This document shows, in pieces, positions 749 through 19,230 of a DNA stretch of 52,712 nucleotides (positions within the stretch are counted from its first letter, which is position 1; each line of letters starts with the position of its first letter). The notes below the pieces were generated by a model. That model was not told where the DNA came from and ran no database searches. It saw only the letters and a program-made list of their open reading frames with translations. The DNA is taken from the IMG/VR virus record IMGVR_UViG_3300049441_000044, positions 1 through 52,712 of that record; one strand, 5' to 3'. Source of the DNA: a virus. Its lineage: Duplodnaviria; Caudoviricetes. The translations under genes and the position numbers were made by a program.

Positions 749-753
749 CGGCT

Positions 754-1167: not shown

Positions 1168-1242
1168 GGCGACCGTGTGATCGTGTCGACTGGCGGCAGT
1201 GGCCGGGCACTGACCCTCGAGCATCGTGAGGGGTGGTGGCCC

Positions 1243-3663
1243 ATGCCCGACGACCAGGACCTCTGGCTGCCCGCCACCGAGCCGGCCCGGTCGGTGCTGG
1301 CGGCGGGCGAGACGCCGATGACGGCCGCCGTGGGCGCGGCGATGACCCGGTACCTCGACGCCGCCAGGGCTGCGGTACTGGCCCACGACACCACCGTCAC
1401 CGACACTCTTGTGGCCGACGCCGACCCTGCGGAGCTGCCCCCGAACTTGGACGCCTGGCCACCGCGGGTGGTGTGGGACGCCGCCACCGACCGGTTCCTG
1501 GCCCCGGTGGTGGCCCAGACTTGGCGGGCGGGCTGGACGGCGAACCTGGGTGCCGAGCAGATCGACGTGGTGTCCGACACCGGCTACCTCGCCGCGCACC
1601 TGGCCGACACCGCGACCCGGCTGACCGGTGCGACCTGGCCCGATGAGCTGTACAACGCGGTGCGGGCGGCGGTCGTGGAGTCGGTCGTGGCTGATGACAC
1701 CCCCGACCAGTTACGGACCAGGATCGCCCAGTTGCTGCATCTGGACACCTGGGCGCCCCGGGTGGCGACGATCGCCCGGACCGAGTTGCACGCCGCGTAC
1801 AGCACCGGCGCCTACCACGCCGGGCTGGCCCGGTCGGAGCAGTTCGGGGAGGAGCTGTCGCGTCAGTGGCTGGCCACCACGGACTCCCGGACCCGGCTGG
1901 CGCATCTGGTCGCGGACGGCATGGTCGCCGGGCCGGGGGAGAGTTTCGACGTGGGCGGTGAGGCGCTGGCCTACCCGCACGACCCGCGCGCCGGGGCAGG
2001 CAACTCGGTCAACTGCCGGTGCGTGCTGCTCTGGCTTGACGCCGCCGAAGCGCGGGCCGCCCGCGCCGCGTACAGCGAGTACCTGATCTCCCTGACGGAC
2101 ACCGAGGAGTTAGCCGTGACCGCTGCCGCCGGCGTCATGCTCGAACCCAGCACGGCCACCGCCACCACCACCGCGGCGGTGCAGGAGGGCGACTCCGGCG
2201 CCGGGGACGGTGAGGAGACCGCGCCGATGCCGACCTGCTGGTCGGGGCCGCTGATGGCGATGGAGTACCGCACCGGCGACAGCGGCATGATCCAGCGGGT
2301 GATCGGGATCCCGGACGACGGCTACCGGGTCACGAACCACCCGTGGCTGTGCTACCAGCGAGAATCCGCCCAAGGCCACGAAGGCAAGATCACCGTGGGG
2401 CGGCCGGAGGTGGTCTGGATCGCCGACGCCGACGTCGACGGGCAGATGGTGCCGCACCTGTGGGGGGCGGGCACGTTCGACCCGGGTGACGACGACGCCA
2501 TGGAAGTGGCCCGCAAGATCGGCGACGGGTACGCGGGCACCGTGTCAGCCGACCTGGACGATGCCCAAGCCGAGCTGCGGTGGCTCGACGCCGACGGTAA
2601 GCAGGTCGACGAACCCGACGACGACGAGTTCTGGGACTGGCTGGAGGGCAAGGACATCGGGAAAAGCCCCATCGAGTACTACCACTCGTGGCGTTTCGCC
2701 GGCGCGACCCTGGCCCAGGACCCGGCGTTCCACACCGGGTGGGTGCAGATCACCGACACCCCGCCGGGCGAGCTGGGTGGGGCCGACGCGGTGTGGCGGC
2801 TGGACACCGAGGCGCTGGTCGCGTCGGCGGCGCCCCCGACGGTGGCGGCGGTGACCGCCGCGACCCCGGGATCGGCGCAGTGGTGCGAGCTGGTCGCGGC
2901 CCGCTCCTGGGAAACCCCGGACCCGAGGTGTTTCCGCAACCCGAACCTGACCGGCATCACGAAGGTGACCGTCAGCGATGACGGGCGGTGGGTGTTCGGG
3001 CACGTCGCGGACTGGGACACCGTGCACGCGGTGTTCGGCTGCCCCCCGCCACGGTGCCCGCACGGCGGCAGCTACCCGCGTTTCCACCGCCACCCGGTGG
3101 TCACCACCGACGGGTCGGTGGTGCTGACCGGGCCGCTGACCGCTGACGGTCACGCCGGCACCGACGAGGGCGTCACCCTGGCCGCCGCCCAGATGTACTA
3201 CGACAACCCGCTGTTTGTGCTGGCCGACGTGGTCGCCGGGCAGGACGAGTTCGGCATCTGGGTGTCGGGGGTCCCCCGGCCGGGGGTATCGGCGGCGGGG
3301 GTGCTGTTCCTGCACCGCTACTCGTTCAGCGGGGACTGGCGGGACAACATGATGATCGCGGCGTGCGCGTGCAGCACCCCGGCGTTCCACGTCGCGCACG
3401 ACCCGGCGGTGGTGGCGCTGGTCGCCGCCGCCGGCGGGTCACGGCCGAGGTTGGCGCCGGCCCGGATCCGGTTGCGCCGCTACCCCGACGGGTCCCTCGC
3501 GGCGCTGGTGGCCTGCGGGGTCGTCGGGACCGGCGCGAAACACCGCAGCACCACCCGACGCCCGGGCGCGCCGGACGGGTGGCGGCTGTACCGGGACTTC
3601 CAGGCCGCCGCCACGGTCGACCGACGGGTCGCCGCCGCGGCGGCGCGGGTGCGGGGGAACTGA
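1243..3663 (+). CDS. MuF-like head morphogenesis domain fused to capsid maturation protease/scaffold
   Basis: MuF motifs IARTE, WLATTDSRTR..H, YPHDP and NCRC. The downstream region (GHEG..VGR, WGAGTFD, VSADLDD, FGHVA.W, GIWVSG, SGDWR) resembles cluster B-type actinophage MuF-protease fusions. Start uncertain (1177 or 1243). Confidence 0.8.
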   Translation: MPDDQDLWLPATEPARSVLAAGETPMTAAVGAAMTRYLDAARAAVLAHDTTVTDTLVADADPAELPPNLDAWPPRVVWDAATDRFLAPVVAQTWRAGWTANLGAEQIDVVSDTGYLAAHLADTATRLTGATWPDELYNAVRAAVVESVVADDTPDQLRTRIAQLLHLDTWAPRVATIARTELHAAYSTGAYHAGLARSEQFGEELSRQWLATTDSRTRLAHLVADGMVAGPGESFDVGGEALAYPHDPRAGAGNSVNCRCVLLWLDAAEARAARAAYSEYLISLTDTEELAVTAAAGVMLEPSTATATTTAAVQEGDSGAGDGEETAPMPTCWSGPLMAMEYRTGDSGMIQRVIGIPDDGYRVTNHPWLCYQRESAQGHEGKITVGRPEVVWIADADVDGQMVPHLWGAGTFDPGDDDAMEVARKIGDGYAGTVSADLDDAQAELRWLDADGKQVDEPDDDEFWDWLEGKDIGKSPIEYYHSWRFAGATLAQDPAFHTGWVQITDTPPGELGGADAVWRLDTEALVASAAPPTVAAVTAATPGSAQWCELVAARSWETPDPRCFRNPNLTGITKVTVSDDGRWVFGHVADWDTVHAVFGCPPPRCPHGGSYPRFHRHPVVTTDGSVVLTGPLTADGHAGTDEGVTLAAAQMYYDNPLFVLADVVAGQDEFGIWVSGVPRPGVSAAGVLFLHRYSFSGDWRDNMMIAACACSTPAFHVAHDPAVVALVAAAGGSRPRLAPARIRLRRYPDGSLAALVACGVVGTGAKHRSTTRRPGAPDGWRLYRDFQAAATVDRRVAAAAARVRGN

Positions 3664-3664
3664 G

Positions 3665-3904
3665 GTGGGATGCAACTGCGCGGGAGGAACAGCCGCCGCT
3701 CTCGTGCGCAGCGCGGTGTCCGGTGCCGTGGCTGCGCCCGGGAGCACCGCACCCCTGTACGAGGTCACCTACCCGAACGCGGTGGTCGTGACGTTTCCCC
3801 AGAAGTGGCAGGCGGCGCAGGCCACCGCCCTGTCCGGGGGCACGATGAAGGTTCTGCAGCCGACTCCAGGGAGTGAAACCGACACGCCCGGCGGGGGTGG
3901 CTGA
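3665..3904 (+). CDS. small MGCNC-type phage head-module protein
   Basis: N-terminal MGCNC motif and position between the protease and capsid genes. Confidence 0.6.
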   Translation: MGCNCAGGTAAALVRSAVSGAVAAPGSTAPLYEVTYPNAVVVTFPQKWQAAQATALSGGTMKVLQPTPGSETDTPGGGG

Positions 3905-4056
3905 GCGCGACGGTTCCCGATCGGGCTAGCATCGGCCAGCGGGTGACCGGCCCGACCTCCTTGGGAGCGTCGGCTGGCACCCCAGCGTCCATCGCATCGT
4001 CTGGAGCCATGTGTCCGGGTGCACCCACATCAGTGGTGTGTACGGAGGCTCCCCGG

Positions 4057-6288
4057 ATGGACCTTGAAGAGCTCCTCACGTTGGCTCTGGCCGCTGACGG
4101 TCCCGCCGCGGGGCAGGCCCGGATCGCGGCGCTCGCCGCTGCCCTGGCCCAAGCCCCCAGCCCCGACACCGACCTGGCCGCCCTGGAAGCGGGCGCGGTA
4201 GCCCAGTTCGAGGAGCTCTACGGGGACGGGCAGGGATACAACCCGGCCGACGCCCCCACCCTGGAGGCGTTGGCCGACGTGGCCGACGCCGTCCGCCTGG
4301 TCCGCGCTGACCGAGCCGCCCTCGCCGGGCGGGTCACGGCGATGGCCGACCGGGTGCGCACCGCACCCGTGGTGGTCGAGGCACCGGAACCGGACCTGAC
4401 GGTGGCTGGTGGGGTGGTCGCTGCGACGACTGACCCAGCGGCGACCGCTGGGCCCGGGTCAGCTGCTCCGTCCCCAGCGGAAATCGCCGCCGAGGCGACC
4501 GCCCCCGCCGCCGCGCTGGCGACGACCACCGCGCGGCCCAGCACCGCCGCGGTCGTCGTCGCCGCCGGCGGCGGGGCGGTGCCGGCCGTGTCCCCGGCGG
4601 GGGAGGTGGCGCCGTGGCGGCGTTACGTCATCACCGCGTCAGCGGAGGTCCCAAACATCGCGAGCGGCGCGAACCTGTCGATGACCGAGCTCGCGGCGGC
4701 CGCCGGAGCACGGTACGGCACGTTCCCGTCCGGGCAGCCCACCGGCAGCATGTACAAAGCCAACGTCGGGCTGGTGCACCGCGAGTTCGACCCGGAGCAC
4801 CGCCTCTCCGGTGACTACGGGGACCTCGCGGCGCTGGACCGGGTCGCGGACGAACGTCGCCTCGCCGGCGGTTCCCTGCTCGTGGCTCAGCGGGCGTTGA
4901 CCGCCGCGGCCGCCGCGCCCGGGGTCTACAACGACGTGTGGTGCACACCCAGCCAGACCGACTACACCCTGTGCCCGGCGTTGGCGACAGCGGAAGGCAT
5001 GATCGACCTCCCGACCACCGGGATGCCCAGCCGGGGCGGGATCCGGTACCCGGTGTGGACCCAGTACCCCGAGCAGCAGGTCGACTCGGCCCGCAACGGG
5101 TGGCACGGCACGGTCGTCACCTACCCGGACCCGCCGGCGGACCCGGGTGTCGGGTTGGACAACCCGACCTACTTTCACCGTGACGCTGCCGACGTCCCAC
5201 CCGGGACCGGGTTGGGCAACCTCAAACGCTGCATCAAGGGCCCGTGTGTGGCCTGGCGTGACACACGGGCCTCGGTCGCGTACCTGTGCGTGACGTCGGA
5301 TCTGCTGCGGGACCGGACCTTCCCGGAGGGCCTGGAGCGGTTCCTGTCCGAGGTGCTGGTGCACCACCAGCACTGGCTCAACGAAATGAAGATCGCCTAC
5401 CTGCAGGCGCACGGTGACCCGATCCCGCCGTTCAGCGTGCAGGCCGGGTCGGGGGCGATCGGGTCGACGTCGCTGACCGCCGTGGACCGGTTGTCGCTGC
5501 TGGTGACCTGGATGCGGAACCGGTACAAGATGGCGCTGCGCGCCACCCTGGAGATCATCGCCCCGGAGTGGTTCCGGGAGTACCTCAAACGCGACATCGA
5601 GAAGCGGCAGAGCCGGACCACCGGCGCGGTCTCCGACGGGGAGATCGCGGACCTGTTCGCCGCGTACGCCTCCCGGGTGCAGTGGGTGCGGGACTGGCAG
5701 GAGCTCGGCGACGGCGTCGCGGTCGGCGGCCGGATCATGCCTCCCGGTGGGTGGCCGAGCTCGGTCAACATGATGGCCTACCCGGCCGGGTCCTGGGTGT
5801 ACTCCGAAGGCAACATCCTCACGCTCGGGGTGCAGTACGACCCGTTGCAGCTGGAATCCAACGAGTACTCGGCGATGTTCACCGAGGACTCCTGGATGTT
5901 GCTGAACAGATGCAACCGCACGTTCGTGGTGTCGCTGACCGACTTGTGCGCCAACGGCGCCGTCGGCCCGAACCGGGACTCGTGCCTGATGGTGACGACC
6001 CTGTTGCCGGGCCCGTCGGGTCTGTCGGCGGGGACCCCGACCGCGACGACGGCGCCGCTGGTGTGGACGGCGGTCCCCGGCGCGGTCGGCTACCAGGTGC
6101 AGCGCTCGGTGAACGCGGGCGCCACCTGGACCGACGTCGTCACCGGCAGCGGTGGCACCCCGACGGCGGCGTTCACCACCGTCACCGGCCTGACCACGGC
6201 CACGGCCTACCACTTCCGGGTCATCGCGGTGAACGTCGACGGGGTCCGTGGCGCCCCGTCGGCCGCGATTCCCGTGACGACCACCTAA
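4057..6288 (+). CDS. major capsid protein (cluster B-like) with N-terminal scaffold-like region and C-terminal Fn3-like domain
   Basis: GGAGG RBS before ATG 4057. Ala-rich N-terminus, WCTPSQTDY and RGGIRY motifs. C-terminal W.AVPGA.GY.VQRS...VTGL...TAYHFRVIAVN Fn3 pattern. Confidence 0.8.
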   Translation: MDLEELLTLALAADGPAAGQARIAALAAALAQAPSPDTDLAALEAGAVAQFEELYGDGQGYNPADAPTLEALADVADAVRLVRADRAALAGRVTAMADRVRTAPVVVEAPEPDLTVAGGVVAATTDPAATAGPGSAAPSPAEIAAEATAPAAALATTTARPSTAAVVVAAGGGAVPAVSPAGEVAPWRRYVITASAEVPNIASGANLSMTELAAAAGARYGTFPSGQPTGSMYKANVGLVHREFDPEHRLSGDYGDLAALDRVADERRLAGGSLLVAQRALTAAAAAPGVYNDVWCTPSQTDYTLCPALATAEGMIDLPTTGMPSRGGIRYPVWTQYPEQQVDSARNGWHGTVVTYPDPPADPGVGLDNPTYFHRDAADVPPGTGLGNLKRCIKGPCVAWRDTRASVAYLCVTSDLLRDRTFPEGLERFLSEVLVHHQHWLNEMKIAYLQAHGDPIPPFSVQAGSGAIGSTSLTAVDRLSLLVTWMRNRYKMALRATLEIIAPEWFREYLKRDIEKRQSRTTGAVSDGEIADLFAAYASRVQWVRDWQELGDGVAVGGRIMPPGGWPSSVNMMAYPAGSWVYSEGNILTLGVQYDPLQLESNEYSAMFTEDSWMLLNRCNRTFVVSLTDLCANGAVGPNRDSCLMVTTLLPGPSGLSAGTPTATTAPLVWTAVPGAVGYQVQRSVNAGATWTDVVTGSGGTPTAAFTTVTGLTTATAYHFRVIAVNVDGVRGAPSAAIPVTTT

Positions 6289-6336
6289 ACCCGGGGGGCC
6301 AGGGGACAACCTGATGACGGCGATGGGTGTGAGCCG

Positions 6337-7191
6337 ATGAGCGCTCCGGTGGCGGCGCCTCGGATGCCCGTGCGGGCACCGGTCGCGTCGCCGCCGCACA
6401 AGTTCGGGTTGTTCTCCGTCGCGCTGATCCAGGAGGACGCCGACGCGCACACCCTCGGCGGTGTCGAGTACCAGGCGGTGTGCAGCACCCGCGTCGACCC
6501 GTACCCGGTGGCGTGCGAGACGACGGTGCCCCCGGAGCTGCTGGGCCAGCCGAAGGAAACCGACACCACCACCGGGATCACGGTCGGCACCCCGTTCGGG
6601 CTCTACGCCGGGGACTCGTGCGTGCTGGGCCGCACCCAACCCGAGGCCCGCAGCCAACTCCGGGCCCGGTTCCTGGCCGGGGAACAGGCCACCGTCGAGC
6701 GGGTGGTGTTCAGCGGGGAGCTGGGCAACGTCCCCAACCTGATCGAGGCCACCGTGCTGGCCTCACCGGCGGCACCGGATCTGCCCGACGCGGTCGGGTT
6801 GCTGGAGCAGTGGCTGGCGACGACGACCGGCGGGGTCGGGATCATCCACGCCCCCCGGTGGCTCGCGCCCCGGGCGTTCCTCCAGGTCCTGGCCCTGACC
6901 GCCGGCCCCCGGGCGATGACGGTGCTGGGGTCGTCGTGGGCGTTCGGCACGGGCTACCCGGGCAGCGCGCCGGCCGGGCAGTCCGCGGACACCGCGTTGT
7001 GGCTCTACGCCACCCCCCCGGTCACGGTCCGCCGCTCCGGGTTGATCGAACCAGCCGACTGGGCCTCCGGGGGGTTCGACCGGGAGCAGAACCTCGGGTT
7101 GCTGCTGGAGGAACGGCTCTACGTCGTGGACTGGCCGTGCATGTCGGTGGCGGCGATCAAAACCAGCCTGACCAGGCCAGGGCCGCCGTGA
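6337..7191 (+). CDS. second capsid-like protein (capsid pentamer-like)
   Basis: Follows the capsid gene. GLFSVA, PFGLYAGDSC, GEQ..VE and LLEQWLA...GIIH pattern recalled from cluster B-type phages. Confidence 0.6.
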   Translation: MSAPVAAPRMPVRAPVASPPHKFGLFSVALIQEDADAHTLGGVEYQAVCSTRVDPYPVACETTVPPELLGQPKETDTTTGITVGTPFGLYAGDSCVLGRTQPEARSQLRARFLAGEQATVERVVFSGELGNVPNLIEATVLASPAAPDLPDAVGLLEQWLATTTGGVGIIHAPRWLAPRAFLQVLALTAGPRAMTVLGSSWAFGTGYPGSAPAGQSADTALWLYATPPVTVRRSGLIEPADWASGGFDREQNLGLLLEERLYVVDWPCMSVAAIKTSLTRPGPP

Positions 7192-7328
7192 CGGGCCCAC
7201 CCGTGTTGTCCATCGGTTCCCCCGCCGGTGGATTCCGCCCCCTCTCGCGGGGTGGACCCGCCCTCGCCGGTTCTGCCCCACAGGCCGGCGGGGGCGCACC
7301 CTCTACCAGCACAGTGCAGGAGTGAGCC

Positions 7329-8363
7329 GTGACTGCTCCCGTGATCGCACCACCGTCGCTGTGCGCCTCGTTCATCGGCGCCCGACTCCTGCGGGTGACC
7401 CTCGTCGACGCCTGCGGGCGCCCCGTCTGGGGGCCGCTGAGCCAGGTCGTCAGCAAGGGTTTCGTGTCCGTGGAGATCGCCCCCGAAGTGGAGTCCGGCG
7501 AGTCGTTCAAAGTCAAGAACGCGGCCGGTGAGCTCTGCGTCAACGACCGGGGCCAGGACTCCGTGTCCTGGTACACGCTGACGATCGAGTTCTGCGCGGT
7601 TGACCCGGACCTGTTCCTGATGATGAACCGCACCTGGAAGCGGGTCACCGACGCGTCCCGGGTGACGACCACCGGGTGGCGCCAAGGCGAGCGGTTCTCC
7701 GACACCCTCGGGTACTCGCTGGAGCTGTGGCCGAAGGTGACCGGCGCCGGGGCGGGGCAGGCGTGCCTGCTCGACGCCGGGGTGGTCGTCGACCCGACCC
7801 TGGAACCCGGCGGGTACCTGCTGATGCCGTGGGTGGTGGCCCTAGCACCGGAAAGCGTCACGTTCGCGAACGCCGCCGTCAGTTTCAAGCAGAAGGGCCG
7901 CACCCGGCCGGGCAGCCTGTGGGGGGTGGGTCCCTACCTGGTGACCCGCGACGTCGACGGGGAACCGTCGCGGCTGCTGGACCCGATCGACCCCGGGTTC
8001 GACGTGCCGGGGCTGGACTTCCTCACCACCGGGGATCCCGACCACCTGCACACAGAGATCATCACCCTGGCCCCGCCGGTGGCGGTGTGCGGCGCGCAGC
8101 CGCTGTGGAACCCCGACGCCGTCGCCCCGATCCTCACCGCCACGGCGACGGTCGCGGTGGCCCGGTCGGTGGACCTGACGGTGACTAACTTCGTCCCGAT
8201 CGGGTCCTCCGGCACGGTGCACTGGGGTGACGGCACGTCCGAGGCGTTCACCACCGCCACCGAGTCGCACCTGTACGCGGTGGGGCTGGTCGGCCTGCCG
8301 CAGACCATCACGTTCTACGCCGCGAACGGCGCGGCGCCGGTGACGGCGATGTTCACCCCCTGA
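7329..8363 (+). CDS. major tail protein-like with C-terminal PKD-like module
   Basis: RVT.VDACGRP, GFVSVE, KNAAGELCV and FCAVDP motifs. C-terminal VHWGDG...H.Y. Confidence 0.72.
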   Translation: MTAPVIAPPSLCASFIGARLLRVTLVDACGRPVWGPLSQVVSKGFVSVEIAPEVESGESFKVKNAAGELCVNDRGQDSVSWYTLTIEFCAVDPDLFLMMNRTWKRVTDASRVTTTGWRQGERFSDTLGYSLELWPKVTGAGAGQACLLDAGVVVDPTLEPGGYLLMPWVVALAPESVTFANAAVSFKQKGRTRPGSLWGVGPYLVTRDVDGEPSRLLDPIDPGFDVPGLDFLTTGDPDHLHTEIITLAPPVAVCGAQPLWNPDAVAPILTATATVAVARSVDLTVTNFVPIGSSGTVHWGDGTSEAFTTATESHLYAVGLVGLPQTITFYAANGAAPVTAMFTP

Positions 8364-9250
8364 TGAGCTCACCCACCTACCAGGTCCACCCGGCGGCCGC
8401 GTCAGCGGCGGCGGAGCTGGCGGCGGCGGGTGGGGACGGGACCTGGGCGCTGACCGACCCGGACGGGCCGTGCCGCACCTGGCCGTTGGCGCCCGGCTGC
8501 GGGTGCCTGCCCCCGAACCCGGCGGTGTGGACCGAGCTGCACCGGCTCGCGGTGGAAGACGCCACCACCATCCTGTGGTCCCTGACGGCGGGGGTGTTCG
8601 GGCTGTGCCGGGTGACGGTGCGCCCCGGCCGGCACACCCCCTGCGGCGGTGCCGACGTCGGCTGGTGCGGCTGCCCGTACACCCCGGAGATCAAGTTACC
8701 GGGCCCGGTGTTCCGGGACCCGCCGGGTGTGTCGGCACCCAAGTACCCGATCGAGGTGTGGATCGACGGCGCCGCACTGCCAGCCACCGAGTACCGCCTG
8801 GTGGAACCGGACCGGCTGCTGCGGGTCGGGTGCGCCGGGTGGCCCGGCTGCCAGCACCTGGACCGGCCGCTGGAACCCGTCGACGGGCAACCGGACTCGG
8901 CTCTGGGCACCTTCGGGATCCGGTACTGGCGGGGCCGCCCGGTCCCTCCCGGCGGACGGCGGGCGGTGGCGTTGCTGGCCTGCGAGCTGTGGCGGGCCTG
9001 CACCGGGGACGCCGCGTGCCGCATCCCGGCCCGGGTCGAGCTGGTCGAACGGGAAGGCGTCACCTACCGGATCATCGACAAGCAGGAGTTCCTCAGTAAG
9101 GGCCGGATCGGGATCACCGAGATCGACACCTGGCTGGCGTCGGTCAACCCCCGGGCCCGCCGCGGCCCGCCGGCGGTGTTCTCGGTCGACGACCCGCCGC
9201 TGGTGGGCGAACGCACCGCCAGCACCTACCCGGGGGAGCCCGGGACGTGA
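8363..9250 (+). CDS. head-to-tail adaptor-like protein
   Basis: LWSLT...FGLC..TVRP, WP.CQ, LACEL, REGVT and GI.EID.WL..VNP motifs. Translationally coupled to the upstream gene. Confidence 0.68.
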   Translation: MSSPTYQVHPAAASAAAELAAAGGDGTWALTDPDGPCRTWPLAPGCGCLPPNPAVWTELHRLAVEDATTILWSLTAGVFGLCRVTVRPGRHTPCGGADVGWCGCPYTPEIKLPGPVFRDPPGVSAPKYPIEVWIDGAALPATEYRLVEPDRLLRVGCAGWPGCQHLDRPLEPVDGQPDSALGTFGIRYWRGRPVPPGGRRAVALLACELWRACTGDAACRIPARVELVEREGVTYRIIDKQEFLSKGRIGITEIDTWLASVNPRARRGPPAVFSVDDPPLVGERTASTYPGEPGT

Positions 9251-11124: not shown

Positions 11125-12942
11125 GTGACCTACGAACCGCAAACCTGGGTCGACGGGGAGGACGGCGGCACTCCGGTGTCCGGGGCCCGGCTCGCTCATT
11201 TGGAGGCCGGGGTCGCCGCCGCGGTGGCGCAGGACGACAACCTGGCCGACCTGGCCAGCCCGGCGGCGGCCCGGACGAATCTGGGTCTGGCGCCGGTCGC
11301 CGCGAGCGGCGTCTACACCGACCTGTCCGGCGCACCGGTGATCCCGGTGACCTACGCCGACCTGACCGGCACCGTCCCGCAGGCGGCGCTGCCCGCCCTG
11401 GCCCTCACCGAGTACCTCGGTGCGGTGGCCTCCCAGGCGGCGATGCTGGCCCTGACCGGGCAGCGGGGTGACTGGTGCACCCGCACCGACCTCGGCACCG
11501 ACTGGCAGCTGGTAGCCGACGCCCCGACGCTGCTGGTGTCGTGGCAAGAGCACCTGTACCCGGCGTCGCCGGTGCAGTCCGTCGCCGGGCGCACCGGCGC
11601 GGTCGTGCTCACCGAGGCCGACGTGAGCGGGCTGGTCGGCGACCTGGCCGGGGCGGCGCAGAAGGCAGCCAACCTGTCGGACCTGGCCAGCGCGGCGAGC
11701 GCACGGACCAGCCTCGGTTTGGCGACAGTCGCCGCCACCGGCGCCTATGCCGACCTCTCCGGTCGCCCGGCGATTCCCGCTGCCTACAGCGACCTCACCG
11801 GCACCGTGCCCCAAGGGGCGCTACCCGCCGTCGCACTCACCGAGTTCCTGGGCGCGGTGGGGTCGCAGGCCGCGATGTTGGCGCTGACCGGGCAGCGGGG
11901 TGACTGGTGTAGCCGCACCGATCTGGGCACCGACTGGCAGCTCATCGCGGATGCTCCGGCCCTGCTGGGTTCGTGGCGGGAGCACATCTACCCGGCCAGT
12001 CCGGTGTCCTCCGTCGCGGGCCGCACCGGCGCCGTGGTCCTCGGCGAATCGGACATCCCTGGTTTGGTCACGGACCTGGCAGCGAAGGCAGCCGACGCCC
12101 TGGTGGTGCACCTGGCGGGCACCGAAACCATCACCGGGGCCAAGACGTTCAGCACGGCACCCGTCGTGCCGGCCCCCTCAGCGGCGGGCAACCCGGTCCG
12201 CCACGACGACGTCCGCAACACCGACTCCCGGCCGCCCTCCGGTACGGCCAGCGGGTCCCTCGCGGGCGCCTACCCGGGCCCGTCCCTCGCGGCCGGTGCG
12301 GTCGGCGGGACCGAGATCGCCGCCGCCATCAAAGACCCGGCAGCCGCGACGGCTGGGTTGCGGACCCTGGGTACCGGTGCCGCGCAGGCCGCGGCGGGCA
12401 CCCACACCCACACCTCCGGGTCGGTCACCCCGGCCGATCATGGGCTGTTGTGCTGGTCGTGTGACCCGGCGGTCGCGGCGGGGTCCTCAGCCCTGATCAG
12501 CGGAACCGTGTATCTGGCACGGGTCCCTGTGCCGGCCGACGTGTCCGTCACCAAGATCTACTGGGGAGTCGGGAACCTGGCAGTATCCCCGGTCGCCGGT
12601 CAGAACGAGGTGGGGATCTACGACCCCTCCGGCAACAAGCTGGTCGCCGCCAACGTCGACGCAGTGGTCACGTCATCCGGGCTCAAAACGACAACAATCG
12701 CGTCAACCTCCCTGGTGGGTCTGGCGTTCGTGTGGGTGGCGTTCGTGTTCAACGCCGCCACCCCGCCCGGTTTGCAGCGCACCACGGCGACGATCAGCGG
12801 CGGATTCCTCAACGCCGGACTCACCGCCGCGGCCTCACGTGCGTCGACGAACGGGACTGCCAAGACGGTGCTGCCCACCTCGATCACACCGTCGGCGGCC
12901 ACCCAAGCAGCCAACGTGATCTTCGCGGCGTTGGGACTGTGA
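11125..12942 (+). CDS. tail fibre/minor tail-like protein
   Basis: MTYEPQTW.DG..GTP....L..LE.G N-terminus, NL.DL...ARTNLGL and VxSVAGRTGAVVL fibre motifs, and a beta-rich C-terminal domain. Confidence 0.7.
   Translation: MTYEPQTWVDGEDGGTPVSGARLAHLEAGVAAAVAQDDNLADLASPAAARTNLGLAPVAASGVYTDLSGAPVIPVTYADLTGTVPQAALPALALTEYLGAVASQAAMLALTGQRGDWCTRTDLGTDWQLVADAPTLLVSWQEHLYPASPVQSVAGRTGAVVLTEADVSGLVGDLAGAAQKAANLSDLASAASARTSLGLATVAATGAYADLSGRPAIPAAYSDLTGTVPQGALPAVALTEFLGAVGSQAAMLALTGQRGDWCSRTDLGTDWQLIADAPALLGSWREHIYPASPVSSVAGRTGAVVLGESDIPGLVTDLAAKAADALVVHLAGTETITGAKTFSTAPVVPAPSAAGNPVRHDDVRNTDSRPPSGTASGSLAGAYPGPSLAAGAVGGTEIAAAIKDPAAATAGLRTLGTGAAQAAAGTHTHTSGSVTPADHGLLCWSCDPAVAAGSSALISGTVYLARVPVPADVSVTKIYWGVGNLAVSPVAGQNEVGIYDPSGNKLVAANVDAVVTSSGLKTTTIASTSLVGLAFVWVAFVFNAATPPGLQRTTATISGGFLNAGLTAAASRASTNGTAKTVLPTSITPSAATQAANVIFAALGL
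11239..12102 (+). repeat. 432-bp (144-aa) diverged tandem duplication within the fibre gene
   Basis: Units start at AAC 11239 and AAC 11671. Both contain AMLALTGQRGDWC.RTDLGTDWQL. Confidence 0.9.
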
Positions 12943-12976
12943 CCGTGACCGGGTACCGGAGCGGGCGGTGGGTGTC

Positions 12977-13370
12977 ATGAGCGGGTGGGTGCAGTGACTC
13001 ATCACCGGCGCCGCCGTCGTGACCGCGATCGGGGATCTTGTGGGCCAAAATCATCCGCCCGTTGCTGGACCTGCGTGAGCAGCTCCGCAGGGCCATCCCC
13101 GCAGTTCAGGCCCTCACCAACGTGTTCGGCGGGAACGCGACCATGCTCAGCGTCCTCAACGAGATCGCGGCGCAGTTCAAGACCGACAGCGGCTCCAGTC
13201 TGCGGGACGTCGTGAACGGTCTCGCCGCCGCCGCCGAGGAGAACGGCCAGACCAGTGATCAGTTGCGGATCGGCGCGGAAGCCGCCCGGACACTCGCCGA
13301 ACGCGATCACCAGAAACTTAGGGCCGCCACCGGCCACAGCCCGCTACCCGGAACCGGGGTCCTGACATGA
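12977..13370 (+). pseudogene. disrupted phage membrane protein (GSSLRD type)
   Basis: ATG 12977 reads MSGWVQ*LITGAAVVTAIG, with TGA at 12995 and an extra G in GGGG at 13031-13034. Repairing both joins it to ILWAKIIRP...DSGSSLRDVVN. Confidence 0.6.
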
Positions 13371-13837
13371 CACCACCACAGGAGAGGCGGGTGGGTGTGC
13401 GCCGACGGACGTTCCGGCTGAACATCGAGTCCCCGACGTGGCCCGCGTCGGTCATCGCCGGGGCCTACGGGCTGCTGGGGCTGGCGATGCTGGGCCAGCC
13501 GCACCGGTTCGTGGTCACCGCCCCGTTCGGGATCCTCCTGGACATCATGCCGATCCGGGCCTGGGGTGCCGCGCACCTGGCGGTGGCGGCCCTGTTCCTG
13601 CTCTACGTCGCCGTGGCGCCGGGACGGACCGCCGCGCTGGCGGCGCACATCGCCGGGTTCGTCCTGACCACCCTGTGCCTGATCGCGTTCGTGGTGCGGT
13701 ACATCACCGACCCCGGCACCACGCCGACCAACGCGATCTCCTGGCTGGTGTACCTGTTCGTTTTGGCCCGCTCGGCGTCGCTGATACCCCGGGTCACCGC
13801 CCGGCACGGCACCCGTCGGGGATCGGGGGCGGTGTGA
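13367..13837 (+). CDS. multi-pass membrane protein (lysis region)
   Basis: About four hydrophobic segments; ATGA overlap with the upstream gene. Confidence 0.65.
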   Translation: MTPPQERRVGVRRRTFRLNIESPTWPASVIAGAYGLLGLAMLGQPHRFVVTAPFGILLDIMPIRAWGAAHLAVAALFLLYVAVAPGRTAALAAHIAGFVLTTLCLIAFVVRYITDPGTTPTNAISWLVYLFVLARSASLIPRVTARHGTRRGSGAV

Positions 13838-14253
13838 CACCCACCGAGATCACCCTGATGCTGGGCCTGGTCGTGACCCTGCTGTCCTCGGTCGGGGTCC
13901 CGCTGTACCTGAGGCGCCAGGCCGCCCGTCAGGCCGCGACGGAACGGAAGATCGCGGCCATGGCCGCCGAGAAGGCGGGGGAGGCACTGACCTGGGAGAA
14001 GATCAACCAGGCGATCGCCCGGGAACGGGACGCGCTGACCGTCGCCCTCAAAGAAGCGGTGATCGAGCACCGGACCGCGATCGTGGAGCTGCGCAAGTTC
14101 TTCGCCGAAGAGGCCGACCGGATCAAGCAGCGGACCGATTACGACCTGGACCGGGCCAACCTGCGGATCAGGCAGCTCGGTGAGGAGGTCTCGGGCCTGA
14201 TCCAGCGGCAGAGCACCGCCCAGCCGCCGCAACCCGGGGACAACCCGCCGTGA
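13834..14253 (+). CDS. membrane-anchored coiled-coil protein
   Basis: GTGA overlap. One N-terminal TM segment followed by a charged heptad-like helix. Confidence 0.65.
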   Translation: MTPTEITLMLGLVVTLLSSVGVPLYLRRQAARQAATERKIAAMAAEKAGEALTWEKINQAIARERDALTVALKEAVIEHRTAIVELRKFFAEEADRIKQRTDYDLDRANLRIRQLGEEVSGLIQRQSTAQPPQPGDNPP

Positions 14254-14450
14254 TCCTCCGCAGGGCGCGGCCGGGGTTGCGGCCCGCCGCGCTGACCGCG
14301 TCGCCGCTGCTGGTGGCCGCGCTGCTGACCTCACCAGCACCCCCGCTGGTGTGCCGACCGGGATGGGTCGAGCAGGTGTTGATCTGGCCCGGGGGTGACC
14401 GGGACCTGGTGTGCGCAGCACTGCCACCGGACCCCAGCAACGACGAGTGA
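14250..14450 (+). CDS. small putative secreted protein
   Basis: Signal-like N-terminus, two Cys residues, GTGA coupling. Confidence 0.4.
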   Translation: MILRRARPGLRPAALTASPLLVAALLTSPAPPLVCRPGWVEQVLIWPGGDRDLVCAALPPDPSNDE

Positions 14451-14466
14451 AGAGGAGGCGACGGCG

Positions 14467-14907
14467 ATGCCCGAGCCCCACAGCAACGGCCGGACCGGCA
14501 GGACCAGCCGAGCCGGCCGACCGCGCCCGCCCGCAGCGGCGGCCCACCCCGACGAGCCACCCGCAGCGGAACCCGTCCCGCCGGCACCACCACCACCGGC
14601 GGCGGACCCACCCGCACCGGCGGGGCAGGACGACCCGCCCGGGGACGACGCTGACGCCGGCCTCGACGGGGGCCTGAGCCACGTCACCGACGGGGAGTGG
14701 CGGGACGCGCACCTGCGGCTGATGGGCGACCTGCAGGGCGTCGTGCCGGCCGAGCAGCTGGACTTCGTCTGGGCGCCGGGGACCGCCGCGGACCGGGCCG
14801 ACACCACAGCGGTCGGGCAGCCCGACCCGGGGGAGGTACCCGACCACGGGAGTTTCGACGCGGCCGGGCCCGACGAACGATTCGAGGGAGGCGGGCACCG
14901 TGGCTGA
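14467..14907 (+). CDS. Pro/Asp-rich hypothetical protein
   Basis: GAGGAGG RBS before ATG 14467; overlaps the amidase start. Confidence 0.5.
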   Translation: MPEPHSNGRTGRTSRAGRPRPPAAAAHPDEPPAAEPVPPAPPPPAADPPAPAGQDDPPGDDADAGLDGGLSHVTDGEWRDAHLRLMGDLQGVVPAEQLDFVWAPGTAADRADTTAVGQPDPGEVPDHGSFDAAGPDERFEGGGHRG

Positions 14908-15772
14908 TGACGGCGACCGGCGCCGGATACGGGAGATCATCCAGCGGTTGCGCCACGACTACCGGATCGAGGTCCTGGAGCTCCCCGGCTGGCAGGACCG
15001 GGGCCTGACCTGGGCTCGGGTCCCGACCGGGGTGGTCGACCACCACGACGCCAGCTCCCGCAAGTCCGGGGAGTGGGGGTCGCTCGGTGTGATCCGCGAC
15101 GGGCGGGAGGGCATCCCGGGGCCGCTGAGCCAGTTCCAGATCGCCCGCTGCCTGGACGACGTACCGCGCCTGGCGGTCGTCGCCGCCGGGCGGGCCAACC
15201 ACGCCGGGAAAGGCGGCCCGCTGATCGGGATCCCCACCGACGCCGCGAACGCCTGGGTCTACGGGGTCGAGTCAGCGAACAACGGGGTCGACGAGGGCTA
15301 CACCTGGGCGTCGCACTTCTGCCACGACGCGCTGTTCCGGGTGCTGATGGAGGTGTGCCGGTTCGCGGTGACGCATGTGATCGGGCACCGGGAATGGACC
15401 ACCCGCAAGATCGACCCCCGTTACGACATGAACTGGCGGCGCAGAGGCGTCACTGGCGTGCAGCACCGCGAGGAGGACGACATGTTCGACGAAAACGACC
15501 GGATCATGCTCCGGCAGGTCCATCACGAATCCACTCTTCTCCTGCCCAACCGGCGAGGCGAAGGCGGCAGCGATAACGGCACCGGTCACCAGGACACCGT
15601 GCTGGGTTGGGCAGCGCACGCCGACGGGGCAGCGTGGCGGGCTGAGCACCGGCTACCGGCCGTGGAGGCCCAGCTCAGGGAGGTCCAGGCGGACCTGGCC
15701 ACGATCAAGACGATGCTCGCGGACCTGGTGACCGCCCACACCCCAAAAGCACCTGGCTCGCTACCCGTCTGA
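14900..15772 (+). CDS. endolysin, N-acetylmuramoyl-L-alanine amidase (Amidase_2-like)
   Basis: HHDAS, GPLSQ, ANHAG, GVESANNG and GHREW...KIDP motifs; GGAGG RBS. Confidence 0.85.
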   Translation: MADDGDRRRIREIIQRLRHDYRIEVLELPGWQDRGLTWARVPTGVVDHHDASSRKSGEWGSLGVIRDGREGIPGPLSQFQIARCLDDVPRLAVVAAGRANHAGKGGPLIGIPTDAANAWVYGVESANNGVDEGYTWASHFCHDALFRVLMEVCRFAVTHVIGHREWTTRKIDPRYDMNWRRRGVTGVQHREEDDMFDENDRIMLRQVHHESTLLLPNRRGEGGSDNGTGHQDTVLGWAAHADGAAWRAEHRLPAVEAQLREVQADLATIKTMLADLVTAHTPKAPGSLPV

Positions 15773-16257
15773 GCGCCGGATGGGTCGACGGCAAACGCGA
15801 GCTCCACAGCATCGTCATCCCGCAGATCCTGATCCAGCAGGCGGAGATCGCCGGGTGCCCGCTGGCGGTGGCCGCGACGCTGCTCGACGTCGAGAGCGGC
15901 GGCGGCCAAATGATCTACGGTCGGCCGCCGGGGCCGTGCGGGCAGCCGCACAAGTCCGTCGTGACCGAGGAGAACTACCGGGTCTACCTGGCCCAGCGCG
16001 CGACGTGCGGCACCCAGGGCGTCGGCGCGATGCAACTCACCTGGGGTCCCCTGCAGGACCTCGCCGACCAGCGAGGGGGCTGCTGGGTGCCGGCGGTGAA
16101 CGTGGCCGTCGGGCTTGGCGAGTTCGTCACACACCTGCAGGGCCACAGCATCCCGGAGGCCCTGAGCCTCTACAACACCGGCAAACCCGGCCCGTCGCCC
16201 TACGCCCTGCGGGCACTGGAACGGCTGCCTCGGTGGCAGCAGGTGATCACACCATGA
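15742..16257 (+). CDS. lytic transglycosylase/lysozyme-like domain with no suitable start codon of its own
   Basis: AEIAGCPLAVAATLLDVESGG, GVGAMQLT, NV..G and ALSLYNTG match the SLT motifs. The frame is open from 15646, but the first ATG/GTG is at 15868, inside the motif. Confidence 0.7.
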   Translation, partial: PKSTWLATRLSAGWVDGKRELHSIVIPQILIQQAEIAGCPLAVAATLLDVESGGGQMIYGRPPGPCGQPHKSVVTEENYRVYLAQRATCGTQGVGAMQLTWGPLQDLADQRGGCWVPAVNVAVGLGEFVTHLQGHSIPEALSLYNTGKPGPSPYALRALERLPRWQQVITP

Positions 16258-16514
16258 ACCATCCGACGCGAACAGGAGACCACCGTTTGATCACAGCCCG
16301 GGTGCGGTGCATCCGCAAAGACGAGCTCACCGACGGTGAGAACCGGACGACCATCGTCGTGTGGGAACCGGACTACCAGGCCGGCCTCAACCAGGAATGG
16401 GGCGGCCCGACCCCGAGCCTGCACTTCGAACTGGTCCTCCACGGCACCGCCGCGGACCAGTTCGCCGCCAACCAGAATTACACACTGACCGTCACCAAGG
16501 AGAACACCCCGTGA
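16254..16514 (+). CDS. small phage hypothetical protein
   Basis: ATGA overlap; N.EW...TPS....L.....A..F pattern seen in small phage proteins. Confidence 0.6.
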   Translation: MNHPTRTGDHRLITARVRCIRKDELTDGENRTTIVVWEPDYQAGLNQEWGGPTPSLHFELVLHGTAADQFAANQNYTLTVTKENTP

Positions 16515-16834
16515 GCAGGCCCTACGCAGATACCCGTCCCCGCCCCACCCCGTTGCGTGATGTCGCGCAACGGTGGGCGAGGATCACCGCCCCGGTGGGG
16601 GGCATCATCGCCGCGCTGGTCACCGCCACCACCCTGACCGTGGCCCAGGGCGACGCCCTGTCCGCCGGCCTGGTCGCCGTCAACCTGCTGTTCGGCGCCA
16701 TCACCGGGCTGGTCACCGCCGTGAGCGCCGCGGTCGCCGCGTTCAAGACGGCGAACAGTGGAGCAGAGCACGTCACACCCGTCGGGGACCCGCAGGACAA
16801 CCAGGGCCGAAGGCTGACCCCCGAGGGCACCTGA
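16511..16834 (+). CDS. holin-like membrane protein
   Basis: AAGGAG RBS, two hydrophobic segments, and a C-terminal VTPV..P typical of actinophage holins. Confidence 0.6.
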   Translation: MSRPYADTRPRPTPLRDVAQRWARITAPVGGIIAALVTATTLTVAQGDALSAGLVAVNLLFGAITGLVTAVSAAVAAFKTANSGAEHVTPVGDPQDNQGRRLTPEGT

Positions 16835-16868
16835 CAGCCCAGGCGGCCAGGAGAGGAACGGGGTCACC

Positions 16869-17336
16869 GTGGCGGTGGTGGTGCGCCTGAACCGGCGCCA
16901 GCTCGACGAGCTGGTACACGGGCCGGGAGGGCCCGTCGTCCGGATGGTCGAGCGGGTCACCCGGCAGGCCACCAACGCCGTGCGGGTCCGGGCGCCGGTC
17001 GACACCGGTGTGGGCCGGGCCTCGATCCGCTCCGACGTGCACATCGGGGCGGGCCGGATCACCGGGCGCATCTTCATGGCCCGCCACATGTGGTACCAGG
17101 CGAAGGGCACCGGCATCTACGGCCCCACCGGGTCCCCGATCCGGCCCAAGACCGGCACGGTGCTGGTGTTCCGGGCAAGCCGCACGATCGGGCCGCTGCG
17201 CCCCGGCCAGAAACACCCCGCGCCCGGCCGTCGGGGGCTGGTGTTCGCCAGGCAGGTCAAAGGCGTGCCCCCGAACGATTTCGTGATCGCCGGGGTCCGG
17301 GCAGCGGTGCCCTGGCCGGTGCGCCACAACCGGTGA
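16869..17336 (+). CDS. HK97 gp10-like neck/tail completion protein
   Basis: APVDTG..RASI, GTG, IRPK...VL.F and VFA..V.G..PN.F motifs. Confidence 0.75.
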   Translation: MAVVVRLNRRQLDELVHGPGGPVVRMVERVTRQATNAVRVRAPVDTGVGRASIRSDVHIGAGRITGRIFMARHMWYQAKGTGIYGPTGSPIRPKTGTVLVFRASRTIGPLRPGQKHPAPGRRGLVFARQVKGVPPNDFVIAGVRAAVPWPVRHNR

Positions 17337-17376
17337 AAGTGCGTGACGAGCAGGAAGGACCCGAAGTGTTGTGACC

Positions 17377-17946
17377 ATGCCCGATCCGCGGGAAAACGAA
17401 CGAGTCGCCGCGCTCAGATACGCGGTCGACCTGCACGCACCAGGAATCAGCCACCTCATCGACCGCGTCGGCGACCATCACAAAGCCGCTCTCGCCGTGG
17501 CCGACACCGCCACCGTGCTCTACGGCTGGCTCCGCGGCCCCTACACCCTGATCGTCACCATCAGCGTCTACGACCGGGAAACCGGACAACTTATCAGCGA
17601 AGGAGACACCAACATGGCTCAGATCACCACCATCCAGCGGGCTCACATCAAAGCCCGAGTGATCGACAAGGGTGGGTTCGGGATCCCCGACCGACCCGGC
17701 GATCCCACCGACGACATCGAGTACGCCATCGAGGGTGATGCCGGTGTGGTCACGCTGACGGTCAGCGACGACACCCGGGAGGCGTGGGGCGACCCGGCAG
17801 GACTGGGCTCCACGGTCATCCGGGTCACCTTCCCCACCGCCGAGGGGCCGAAAACCGCGACCGGCGCCATCGACGTCATCAACTCCGAGGCCGACCGGTT
17901 GGAGCTCACCATCGAGGCCGTGGAGCGGCCGGCCCCGGAGGGATGA
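17377..17946 (+). CDS. hypothetical protein with beta-rich C-terminal half
   Basis: Last gene of the + operon. Has an internal in-frame AAGGAG plus ATG at 17614. Confidence 0.55.
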   Translation: MPDPRENERVAALRYAVDLHAPGISHLIDRVGDHHKAALAVADTATVLYGWLRGPYTLIVTISVYDRETGQLISEGDTNMAQITTIQRAHIKARVIDKGGFGIPDRPGDPTDDIEYAIEGDAGVVTLTVSDDTREAWGDPAGLGSTVIRVTFPTAEGPKTATGAIDVINSEADRLELTIEAVERPAPEG

Positions 17947-17986
17947 CCGGGCTCGGGTAGGCAGGGGTCACAGAGCGGGGGCCTGG

Positions 17987-18042
17987 GTGTTACGCGATTC
18001 GTGTTACGTGAATCGCGTAACACGAATCGTGAATCGCGAATC
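17987..18042. repeat. array of eight 7-bp units (RYGWWWC) with overlapping inverted repeats
   Basis: GTGTTAC GCGATTC GTGTTAC GTGAATC GCGTAAC ACGAATC GTGAATC GCGAATC. Perfect 14-bp IR at 17987-18000/18010-18023. Confidence 0.85.
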
Positions 18043-18089
18043 GGGTTTCCGATGCACCTGGTCGACCAGCAGGGCGGGCGCCGGTCGTG

Positions 18090-18278
18090 TCACGCGACCG
18101 GCGCCTCCGCGCGGGCAACCAGCTCCCGCACCCACTCGGGGAAGTCCGACAGCTCCTCGGCGTCGGTCTCGGCGAACACCGCACGCAGCTGGCGCAGGGT
18201 GTCGTCGCTGACGTCCTCGAACCCGTAGAGGACACCCACGGCGGCGGCCAGGCGGTGCGACAACCCGGGTGGCAGCAC
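18090..18278 (-). CDS. small acidic protein, candidate immunity protein
   Basis: GGAG before GTG 18278, immediately after the stop of the ART-like gene; 62 aa, rich in D/E. Confidence 0.5.
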   Translation of the reverse strand: MLPPGLSHRLAAAVGVLYGFEDVSDDTLRQLRAVFAETDAEELSDFPEWVRELVARAEAPVA

Positions 18279-18279
18279 G

Positions 18280-19125
18280 TCACACGCTCCGGTCGACGAG
18301 CAGGGCACCCCGGTTGAGGACGACGACCTCGATCATGCCCTCCGACCAGCGGCCGGCCTCGACGAGGACCGCATCGTACCCGTTGAGCGCGGCCCACCTG
18401 CCAGGATCGCGATTCACTGTGATCCACGTATTGAGCATGTCCAACTGGTCCTCGAGGTCCCTGGTGTCGTCCTCGGCGGCCCGGATTTTCCGGCGCAGCG
18501 CGGCGCGTTCCTCCTTGAGCGTGTCCAGGTCGGCCTGCTGGAGTGGTTCGAGGTCGGGTGCGGTGATGGTGTACGGCCCTGGCGCGAACGTCATCCGGAT
18601 CCTGGCCGCACCATAGGCGCTGATGTCGTCCTGGAGATCCGCGGCACGGCCAGGGGAGTGCTCGACCAGCCCCAACGCGTAGGTCCCGTTGCCATGTATC
18701 CCGCTACCAGGGAAGTAGTCACCGGTCTTGAATTGCTCGACGTAGCGCTGCTCGGGAACCGCACGCCACATTTCGGGCTGGCCACCGTCGATCGCCGATT
18801 GGAACCGGTCGGGGTCGACGAGCTGAGGCAGTGCGTCGAAACCGTTCTGGCGGGCGATTTCCCCGAGGATCGGGTCGTCCCGGCCCAGCGGAGCGGAGCT
18901 GTCCCCGCCGCGCAACAGCGCCGCCATGCCCGCTGACACCCGGATCGCGGCGGGCGTGATCGCCACCCACCCGTGGCGCCACTGGTAGGGCTTGCGGCCG
19001 CCGACCAGCCCGATCCGGTGGGCGGCGGCGGTGACCCTGCGCCGCCGGGCGGCGGCGGCCTGGGTGTCCCGGTACAGCACCCACCCCAGAGACACCGCCC
19101 CGTCGGGTGGGGGGTAAGCAGACAC
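18280..19125 (-). CDS. ADP-ribosyltransferase-fold (PARP-like) protein with N-terminal peptide shared with the protease
   Basis: MWRAV, G.GIHGNGTY, GYDAV and EVVVLNR occur in the order expected for an ART-like fold. The family call is inference. Confidence 0.55.
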   Translation of the reverse strand: MSAYPPPDGAVSLGWVLYRDTQAAAARRRRVTAAAHRIGLVGGRKPYQWRHGWVAITPAAIRVSAGMAALLRGGDSSAPLGRDDPILGEIARQNGFDALPQLVDPDRFQSAIDGGQPEMWRAVPEQRYVEQFKTGDYFPGSGIHGNGTYALGLVEHSPGRAADLQDDISAYGAARIRMTFAPGPYTITAPDLEPLQQADLDTLKEERAALRRKIRAAEDDTRDLEDQLDMLNTWITVNRDPGRWAALNGYDAVLVEAGRWSEGMIEVVVLNRGALLVDRSV

Positions 19126-19230
19126 TGGGCACCGCCCTGATCAGGGGGTACCCGGCCACCACGTCGCCAGTCGGCACGATCACCGGCAGTGTAGCCAGCC
19201 CGGTGACCCGCCGGCCCGGGGACTGAGACC

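Follow-up and report, generated by a model that had tools for sequence, protein, structure and literature searches.

A conserved protease tail recurs at the N-terminus of an effector-like soil-phage protein and may act as a capsid-targeting peptide

The 52,712-nucleotide soil-phage record IMGVR_UViG_3300049441_000044 of IMG/VR, called the window here, encodes one short peptide at opposite ends of two proteins: at the extreme C-terminus of a fusion between a MuF-like minor head protein and a capsid maturation protease (hereafter MuF-protease), and close to the N-terminus of P0003, a free-standing, effector-like open reading frame (ORF). The two peptides are homologous, each of them is conserved, and the core domain of P0003 belongs to a family that occurs in the context of phage head proteins. 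We give a probability of about 0.5 to the reading that the protease tail was copied to the effector and would serve there as a capsid-targeting propeptide resembling the capsid targeting sequence (CTS) of phage T4. Binding, encapsidation, any cleavage of the peptide and ejection are the steps of this reading that we infer.

The shared peptide and its conservation

On the protease side the peptide reads GWRLYRDFQAAATVDRRVAAAAARV (positions 3577-3651, plus strand) and ends four codons short of the stop codon of the MuF-protease; on the effector side it reads GWVLYRDTQAAAARRRRVTAAAHRI (19086-19012, minus strand) and spans residues 14-38 of the 281-aa ORF. Both copies lie where the initial annotation had placed them when it proposed a cargo-loading peptide shared by these two termini, and its alignment was reproduced: 17 of the 25 residues are identical, no gap is needed, and the BLOSUM62 score is 78, compared with 33 for the runner-up when the six frames of the whole Ala/Arg-rich window are searched. 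For three related proviruses, the best second match to the provirus's own protease tail scored 35, 29 and 41. A further detail, that both copies were preceded by PDG, was loosely put: in the protease the tripeptide overlaps the first G of the peptide (..APDGWRLY), and in the effector it lies four residues further upstream (..PPDGAVSLGWVLY). Apart from the peptide, BLASTP revealed no similarity between the MuF-protease and the effector, in line with the earlier description of the two proteins as otherwise unrelated.

A hidden Markov model (HMM) was built from 12 protease tails only and used to search 3,478 sequences, comprising the collected proteins and all ORFs of at least 50 aa of five genomes. 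The model recovered every protease in this set and, beyond the proteases, matched two proteins only: the window ORF P0003, with 21.3 bits and an E value of 2.8e-5, and the homolog P0005, with 22.4 bits and an E value of 1.3e-5. Noise began with the match that followed, at E 0.31, and none of the other 147 listed members of the effector family came under E 1. The window itself contains no third copy of the peptide. That a profile made from tails alone finds P0003 and the 49%-identical P0005 argues that the peptide is translated, old and conserved, and the picture of a portable module put forward by the initial annotation, which had suggested such a profile search for further tagged proteins, agrees with a motif that marks the tails of a MuF-protease clade and also occurs in P0005.

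At the nucleotide level, the two peptide-coding stretches are identical at 53 of 75 positions. The same codon is used at 13 of the 17 conserved residues, compared with 9.0 expected from the codon usage of the genome (P ~0.03); within the first 12 codons, a sub-window chosen post hoc, the figure is 10 of 10 (P ~0.003). This codon identity suggests copying or gene conversion within the genome. All 25 codons of the effector peptide end in G or C, and the ORF thus keeps its coding-type composition across the peptide.

The conservation of the protease tail was assessed with the C-terminal 269 residues of the MuF-protease as query. The tail motif, approximately DG[WF]xL[YF]Rx[FM][QKR]xAxxxDxRVxAAxRRV, was present in 11 of the 30 C-terminal homologs compared (P0155-P0164 and P0169). 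These 11 are the closest homologs, with 37-63% identity over the whole protein, and they are all those that cover at least 92% of the query, whereas the other 19, which are more distant, end in other, unrelated tails; this pattern identifies the extreme C-terminus of the maturation protease as a clade-specific conserved terminal element, as judged from these alignments. A weaker tail match was found in the protease of the related record G003 (26 bits), and in many homologs a second AAAxRV element comes after the motif. The hydrophobic columns kept in the tail (L, F, A, V, A, V) recur at intervals of 3-4 residues, and the helical hydrophobic moment of the tail was borderline when compared with shuffled sequences (P = 0.053).

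On the effector side, the position of the translation start was a point on which the proposal could have failed. The database version of the protein (P0004) is 15 codons shorter, begins VLYRD and still retains 22 of the 25 peptide residues. Codons 1, 11 and 16 are the sole in-frame starts before the end of the peptide; after residue 16 no other follows until V52 and then M67. Because a start at V52 or M67 would delete KPYQWRHGW, a stretch that is invariant between P0003 and P0005, the start, read in this way from the two sequences, cannot lie downstream of the peptide. The alignment of P0005 with P0003 also extends into the sequence upstream of the peptide (V.A[YF]..PD), an argument in favour of the longest start. 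The effector has one close homolog, P0005 (49% identity), followed by P0006 at 30%. P0005 carries the peptide at the same place, as the proposal had required of effector homologs, and retains its F and D columns and the DRRV.AAA.RV half. P0006 was tried as a third tagged protein on account of an LYKKF stretch and was rejected, its similarity to the tails being at noise level (best score 25). The peptide is thus found near the terminus of a protein that does not itself belong to the head structure, and is common to that protein and to the MuF-protease, which is expected to enter the prohead.

The initial annotation had also implied that tag and tail should vary together. Among the 12 tails, the one from its own genome ranks first for the P0003 peptide (score 72; 16 of 22 identical), which is suggestive of co-variation. 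The P0005 peptide is closer to the tails of P0163 and P0160 (62 and 57) than to any 22-residue window of the N-terminal region of P0003, for which the best score is 46, in an alignment that runs into the shared KPYQWR. Together with the codon identity, these scores suggest an old association, present in the common ancestor of the two 49%-identical effectors, with later homogenisation of the tag against the resident protease. None of the five closest protease-bearing IMG/VR records encodes the effector, and the related proviruses that lack it have no second copy of their own tail.

Searches for further loci added little. No second locus was found in metagenome contigs with the alignment of the P0003/P0005 pair, P0003 as a single query matched nothing in viral contigs, and the family alignment found one unrelated short contig of a metagenome-assembled genome among genome contigs. 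A degenerate DNA pattern for LYR[DEQ]x[QK]AA gave 34 matches in IMG/VR, none of them a relative and none with the rest of the motif. The peptide profile, run on a set of 5.8 billion proteins in a weak search limited by shared words, returned only its own five source proteins. In contigs from the soil runs, neither peptide has a supported variant, apart from a 4-nt insertion called at low depth at 3635 in a single run, and these contigs therefore offer no fine-scale co-variation.

The core domain, its family and other recurrent peptides

The core domain of the effector belongs to a large family of phage proteins that no Pfam model covers and that counts 2,165 representatives at E <=1e-3. In the 150 listed representatives, 76 of which are at most 450 aa long and 74 longer, the family profile covers positions about 78-288, and in IMG/VR loci tblastn matches effector residues 84-279. 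R121, Y149 and R272 are invariant, and D251 and N271 nearly so. At 11 of 18 IMG/VR loci the domain is fused C-terminally to a MuF-type head-morphogenesis protein (assigned by eye; the three tested were all confirmed by PHROGs), at two it lies at the C-terminus of a giant portal fusion (portal + 2H + MuF; Mu-type portal + DUF3626), and at five it forms a stand-alone gene, shown in two of these cases to follow portal and MuF genes. In the cultured Gordonia phage Phendrix it lies inside a 1,479-aa gene adjoining the portal gene. Bacterial genomes are nearly devoid of it, with one locus among 185,579 species representatives. The core domain is thus among those that phages transport inside their heads, as described by Iyer et al. 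(PMC5512222), and since it is normally attached covalently to head proteins of the MuF or portal type, a role in packaging is reasonable. P0003 itself is a separate protein, and the MuF of the window is fused to the protease. Several of the MuF fusions (P0032, P0166 and locus L002) have, by eye, intein-like insertions that break the NC.C motif of MuF.

The initial annotation had called P0003 ADP-ribosyltransferase (ART)-like, a label for which a few leads remain. No ART family matches P0003 at E up to 1, and a PDB sequence search with the effector gave no match. Among 67 stand-alone family members, one matches ART-PolyVal (2.2e-8), one ADPrib_exo_Tox and one PARP; one domain copy of P0011 matches ART-PolyVal at E 4.7e-4, under the curated cut-off. 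In the protein Atlas, P0004 lies next to an ART-PolyVal cluster (feature score 0.91, 170 shared features), which is a lead only. Polyvalent-clade ARTs have a catalytic triad H-Y-D on strands 1, 2 and 5 (PMC5512222), and R121, Y149 and D251, read off the sequence, give an R-Y-D pattern that recalls it. The ART-like nature of the effector is thus weakly supported.

Other short peptides recur in the same family. In four low-G+C IMG/VR contigs (L014, L016, L017 and L018), rows of 2-5 ORFs each carry one ~22-aa peptide, KASFGGDRS[AE]AGRYAANxRWQG, 30-90 residues from the ORF start; L018 has six such ORFs if one upstream of the portal gene is counted. The rows include stand-alone members of the effector family and one ORF with a domain of the ADP-ribosyltransferase-exoenzyme type, and in L016 and L018, the two contigs annotated with PHROGs, portal and MuF genes lie just upstream. 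Some of these ORFs have a second, internal copy of the peptide. GRYAA tags were also counted by regular expression, but this count was discarded, as a GR[WYF]AA motif occurs within the domain. By analogy, the shared peptides of these contigs may be taken as a precedent for shared tags. A different peptide, HLPGxHxQKxHG, joins MuF to the core domain in the fusions P0027 and P0032 and also stands N-terminally, upstream of the domain, in the stand-alone P0018 and P0021. Giant proteins with 2-6 tandem domains of the effector family (P0007, P0008, P0010, P0011 and P0013) have the domains separated by conserved short peptides of the HPGPC type or the HGSHNQKxHG type. Conserved short peptides at module boundaries are thus recurrent in this cargo family, with targeting, processing or both as possible roles.

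Possible roles of the shared peptide

In the reading that we favour, the tail would bring the MuF-protease into the assembling prohead, and its copy within the first ~40 residues of the effector would be a capsid-targeting propeptide analogous to the T4 CTS. The effector would be loaded into the head and would enter the next host with the DNA, the tag thereby replacing the covalent MuF or portal fusion that carries the same domain in other phages. The docking partner could be the scaffold-like N-terminal domain of the major capsid protein, which is presumed to be the partner of the peptide, or the protease tail itself. A complex model of capsid protein residues 1-655 with effector residues 1-66, made without controls, gave no answer (score 0.00) and carries no weight on binding in either direction. 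For a prohead protease, a conserved extreme C-terminus is in keeping with the targeting roles described in the literature: a 2013 study by Duda et al. reportedly deals with C-terminal targeting of the HK97 protease, and for SPN3US gp245 PMC7411985 assigns entry into the prohead to the protease's C-terminal domain.

Several observations weigh against this reading. BLASTP with compositional adjustment aligned only the first 9 residues of the peptide (E = 0.29), an alignment cut short because the second half is rich in Ala and Arg, so the significance of the match rests on the empirical and profile tests and not on BLAST. The helical hydrophobic moment of the effector copy is not above that of shuffled sequences (P = 0.41), and this copy has T where 13 of the 14 peptides have F, M or L, and R where 12 of the 14 have D. 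The tagged effectors, P0003 and P0005, are each other's nearest relatives and hence count as one evolutionary event. The effector gene lies outside the late structural operon, 15 kb off and on the opposite strand, in a leftward cassette of variable content that is flanked by the lysis genes and the integrase. This spot is typical of accessory genes expressed in lysogeny, and late co-expression with the capsid proteins is therefore not assured. Finally, a MuF protein has a route into the head of its own, of the SPP1 gp7 type (PMC5512222), which makes the role of the tail in the protease an assumed one.

The same pair of peptides would be left behind if the 3′ end of the protease gene had been joined to the effector gene by recombination, at the acquisition of the cassette or in the break-up of an older MuF-protease-effector fusion, and had then been kept as a neutral N-terminal extension. 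The codon-level identity of the first half, which suggests a copy made within the genome, would fit such a relic, as would the loss of two conserved tail positions in the effector copy of the window and the place of the cassette in a mosaic, non-syntenic part of the genome. Moreover, the stand-alone P0018 and P0021 retain the junction peptide of the MuF-fused P0027 and P0032, so junction peptides do travel with the domain. A neutral leader would not, however, be expected to stay in frame in P0005 and to score there like the P0003 copy, and simple fission would leave the tail on one product, not on both; we consider a mere relic doubtful. It is scarcely credible that the DNA rather than the peptide is the functional unit, as a 75-bp imperfect inverted repeat serving as a recombination or regulator site. 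The two stretches, with their 53 of 75 identical nucleotides, are indeed inverted and 15.4 kb apart, but the longest exact runs are ~13 nt, both copies lie in frames whose third-position G+C content (GC3) comes close to 1, homologs on other contigs conserve both at the protein level, and contigs from four soil metagenome runs contain no well-supported inversion joint between the sites.

Two further alternatives keep the peptide as the functional unit. It could be the site that the maturation protease recognises or cuts, the effector being switched by active capsid protease, for instance as a prophage abortive-infection toxin held by the neighbouring 72-aa ORF and triggered by the protease of a superinfecting relative, or as a means of timing effector activity late. 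This idea would be in keeping with a leftward cassette flanked by lysis genes and integrase, in which a small acidic ORF takes the usual position of an immunity gene, and with the short peptides between the domain copies of P0007, P0008, P0010, P0011 and P0013, given that targeting would be redundant in multi-copy members and processing is thus plausible there. A 2026 preprint reportedly describes activation of the cyclic-oligonucleotide-based anti-phage signalling system (CBASS) by phage proteases (PMC12991175). Against it, no cleavage motif was identified, and the domain is nearly absent from bacterial genomes and typical of virion head proteins, which agrees better with an effector that is delivered than with a defence toxin that is resident. 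A role in recognition is unlikely in our view, and it would be compatible with targeting, since the T4 CTS is both tag and cleavage site (PMC7411985). In the other alternative the two helices would pair with each other and the effector would ride on the MuF-protease and not on the coat. The spacing of the hydrophobic columns, 3-4 residues as in helix-helix packing, and the AAAxRV element repeated after the motif in many homologs would allow for this. Such an arrangement, which we hold to be quite improbable, would limit the copy number of the effector to that of the protease, and in function it would be a sub-case of packaging.

A wider reading, which we offer tentatively and think possible rather than probable, is that tailed phages use modular address tags, short conserved peptides that mark unrelated effectors for encapsidation and replace fusion to MuF or portal proteins. 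The examples would be the protease-tail type, the KASFGGDRS.AGRYAA type and the H.G.H[DN]Q..HG type at module junctions, and recombination would exchange such tags between the proteins of assembly and those carried as cargo. If so, the present case would be the first in which the origin of a tag is visible in the assembly machinery.

Gene map of the record and comparison with known systems

The coordinates of the features are given in Table 1. The record has a G+C content of 72% and no near DNA relative among 50,697 phage records. Four soil metagenome runs, and no RNA run, were listed as containing this phage. Near-identical DNA (positions 3400-19300), with about a dozen supported single-letter differences in all, is present in contigs of at least two additional runs, which are soil metagenomes of other studies. 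The left 16 kb form a head-tail-lysis module in the order DUF1360 protein, small ORF, MuF-protease, capsid protein, phrog_779, tail genes and amidase endolysin. The structural genes (188-11124) are syntenic with four related IMG/VR virus or provirus records, relative to which most of the stretch between ~11.1 kb and the integrase is unique. Neither a portal nor a terminase gene was found, and the record is therefore probably a temperate phage cut at its left end. No Pfam family was found on 10 ORFs sampled to the right of the integrase.

Table 1. Positions of the protease, the effector and other features in the window
Feature	Position	Strand	Remarks
MuF-like minor head protein / capsid maturation protease fusion	1177..3663	+	828 aa
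Conserved C-terminal protease tail PDGWRLYRDFQAAATVDRRVAAAAARVRGN	3568..3660	+	matched 25-mer at 3577-3651
Major capsid protein, hexamer-type	4057..6288	+	phrog_777 major head protein, E 1.8e-90
Endolysin	14900-15772		amidase
Acidic 72-aa ORF	18090..18308	-	overlaps 3′ end of effector gene by 29 nt; GC3 0.90
Free-standing effector-like ORF P0003	18280..19125	-	281 aa; GC3 0.86
Effector core domain	18289..18876	-	residues 84-279; common to MuF and polyvalent head proteins
N-terminal copy of protease tail GWVLYRDTQAAAARRRRVTAAAHRI	19012..19086	-	effector residues 14-38
Integrase	21931..22971	-	phrog_1, E 2.3e-28

The MuF-protease, whose database version (P0154) starts 22 codons later, matches Pfam Phage_Mu_F at residues 161-284 (E 2.6e-10) and the PHROG head maturation proteases phrog_18402 (585-747) and phrog_859 (135-758); by tblastn it matches proteins of cluster-B-type mycobacteriophages annotated as 'capsid maturation protease and MuF-like fusion protein'. 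Between its stop codon and the likely capsid start, which was inferred by aligning with relatives, lies an ORF of ~78 aa (3665-3901, plus strand) that is weakly kept (37-44%) at the same site in three of the four related records (G001, G002 and G004). The capsid protein consists of a helical, scaffold-like N-terminal domain of ~100 aa, an Ala/Pro linker, an HK97-type body and a C-terminal fibronectin type III (FN3) domain; the linker is ~95 residues long, and the closing domain was recognised by an fn3 match. The phrog_779 protein, which has no assigned function, comes after the capsid gene, in a placement presumably reminiscent of the pentamer protein that cluster-B-type mycobacteriophages and Gordonia phages encode. 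The acidic 72-aa ORF beside the effector occupies the position that an immunity or antidote gene usually has; neither a Pfam family nor a match in the four related records was found for it, and by position only it may be an immunity or partner protein.

Capsid-targeting signals are known from few model phages (T4, P1, HK97 and SPN3US), in each case through genetics. Here, sequence alone points both to the source of a tag, the protease tail, and to the cargo recruited, a domain that related phages deliver fused to MuF; this bears on how capsid-targeting signals arise and how new cargo is acquired. If the reading is correct, the peptide would provide a tag of 25-40 residues for loading proteins into the capsids of certain actinophages, namely those with a MuF-protease and a capsid protein with its own scaffold-like N-terminal domain. 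It would also give a rule for finding packaged effectors in metagenomes, by searching for copies of the termini of assembly proteins, and a natural case in which fusion was replaced by a tag in effector delivery.

A cellular parallel is found in encapsulins, in which a short terminal peptide addresses cargo into a shell of the HK97 fold. Encapsulins are, however, cellular compartments without DNA whose cargo genes usually lie beside the shell gene, whereas here a phage capsid forms the shell and 15 kb separate the cargo gene from it. Among phages, the T4 CTS is a short N-terminal propeptide by which otherwise unrelated, ejected anti-host proteins, namely IPI-III (internal proteins) and Alt (an ADP-ribosyltransferase), are incorporated into the prohead (PMC3012670, PMC7411985). 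The effector peptide resembles it in being a short N-terminal peptide on a putative anti-host protein. Binding to a separate scaffold core and removal by gp21 are features of T4, and the T4 tag is common to several cargo proteins, whereas here it is shared by one cargo and the C-terminus of the protease, at opposite ends. The protease side resembles HK97 gp4 and SPN3US gp245, in which an extreme C-terminal segment of the protease is proposed or shown to be a prohead-entry signal; no second protein with the same segment is reported there, and the protease of the window is also fused to MuF. In phage P1, the N-terminal 30 residues of DarB suffice to send a reporter into the capsid (PMC9024508). 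DarB, a direct functional precedent like the T4 CTS, offers an N-terminal signal on an anti-host effector, in a capsid with an N-terminal scaffold domain on the major head protein; for the Dar proteins, that study found neither an N-terminal consensus nor a connection with the protease. MuF polymorphic toxins and polyvalent proteins bring effector domains of the same kind along with the head, and the present domain family is fused elsewhere to MuF, portal and other modules; unlike in MuF toxins, MuF is fused here to the protease, and the effector is a separate, distant gene. In the literature searched we found no description of a tag common to a protease tail and a cargo protein, or of one that replaces a MuF fusion. 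Capsid-targeting peptides as such are already known from these systems; what the present case adds is a tag common to the C-terminus of a maturation protease and the N-terminus of an effector.

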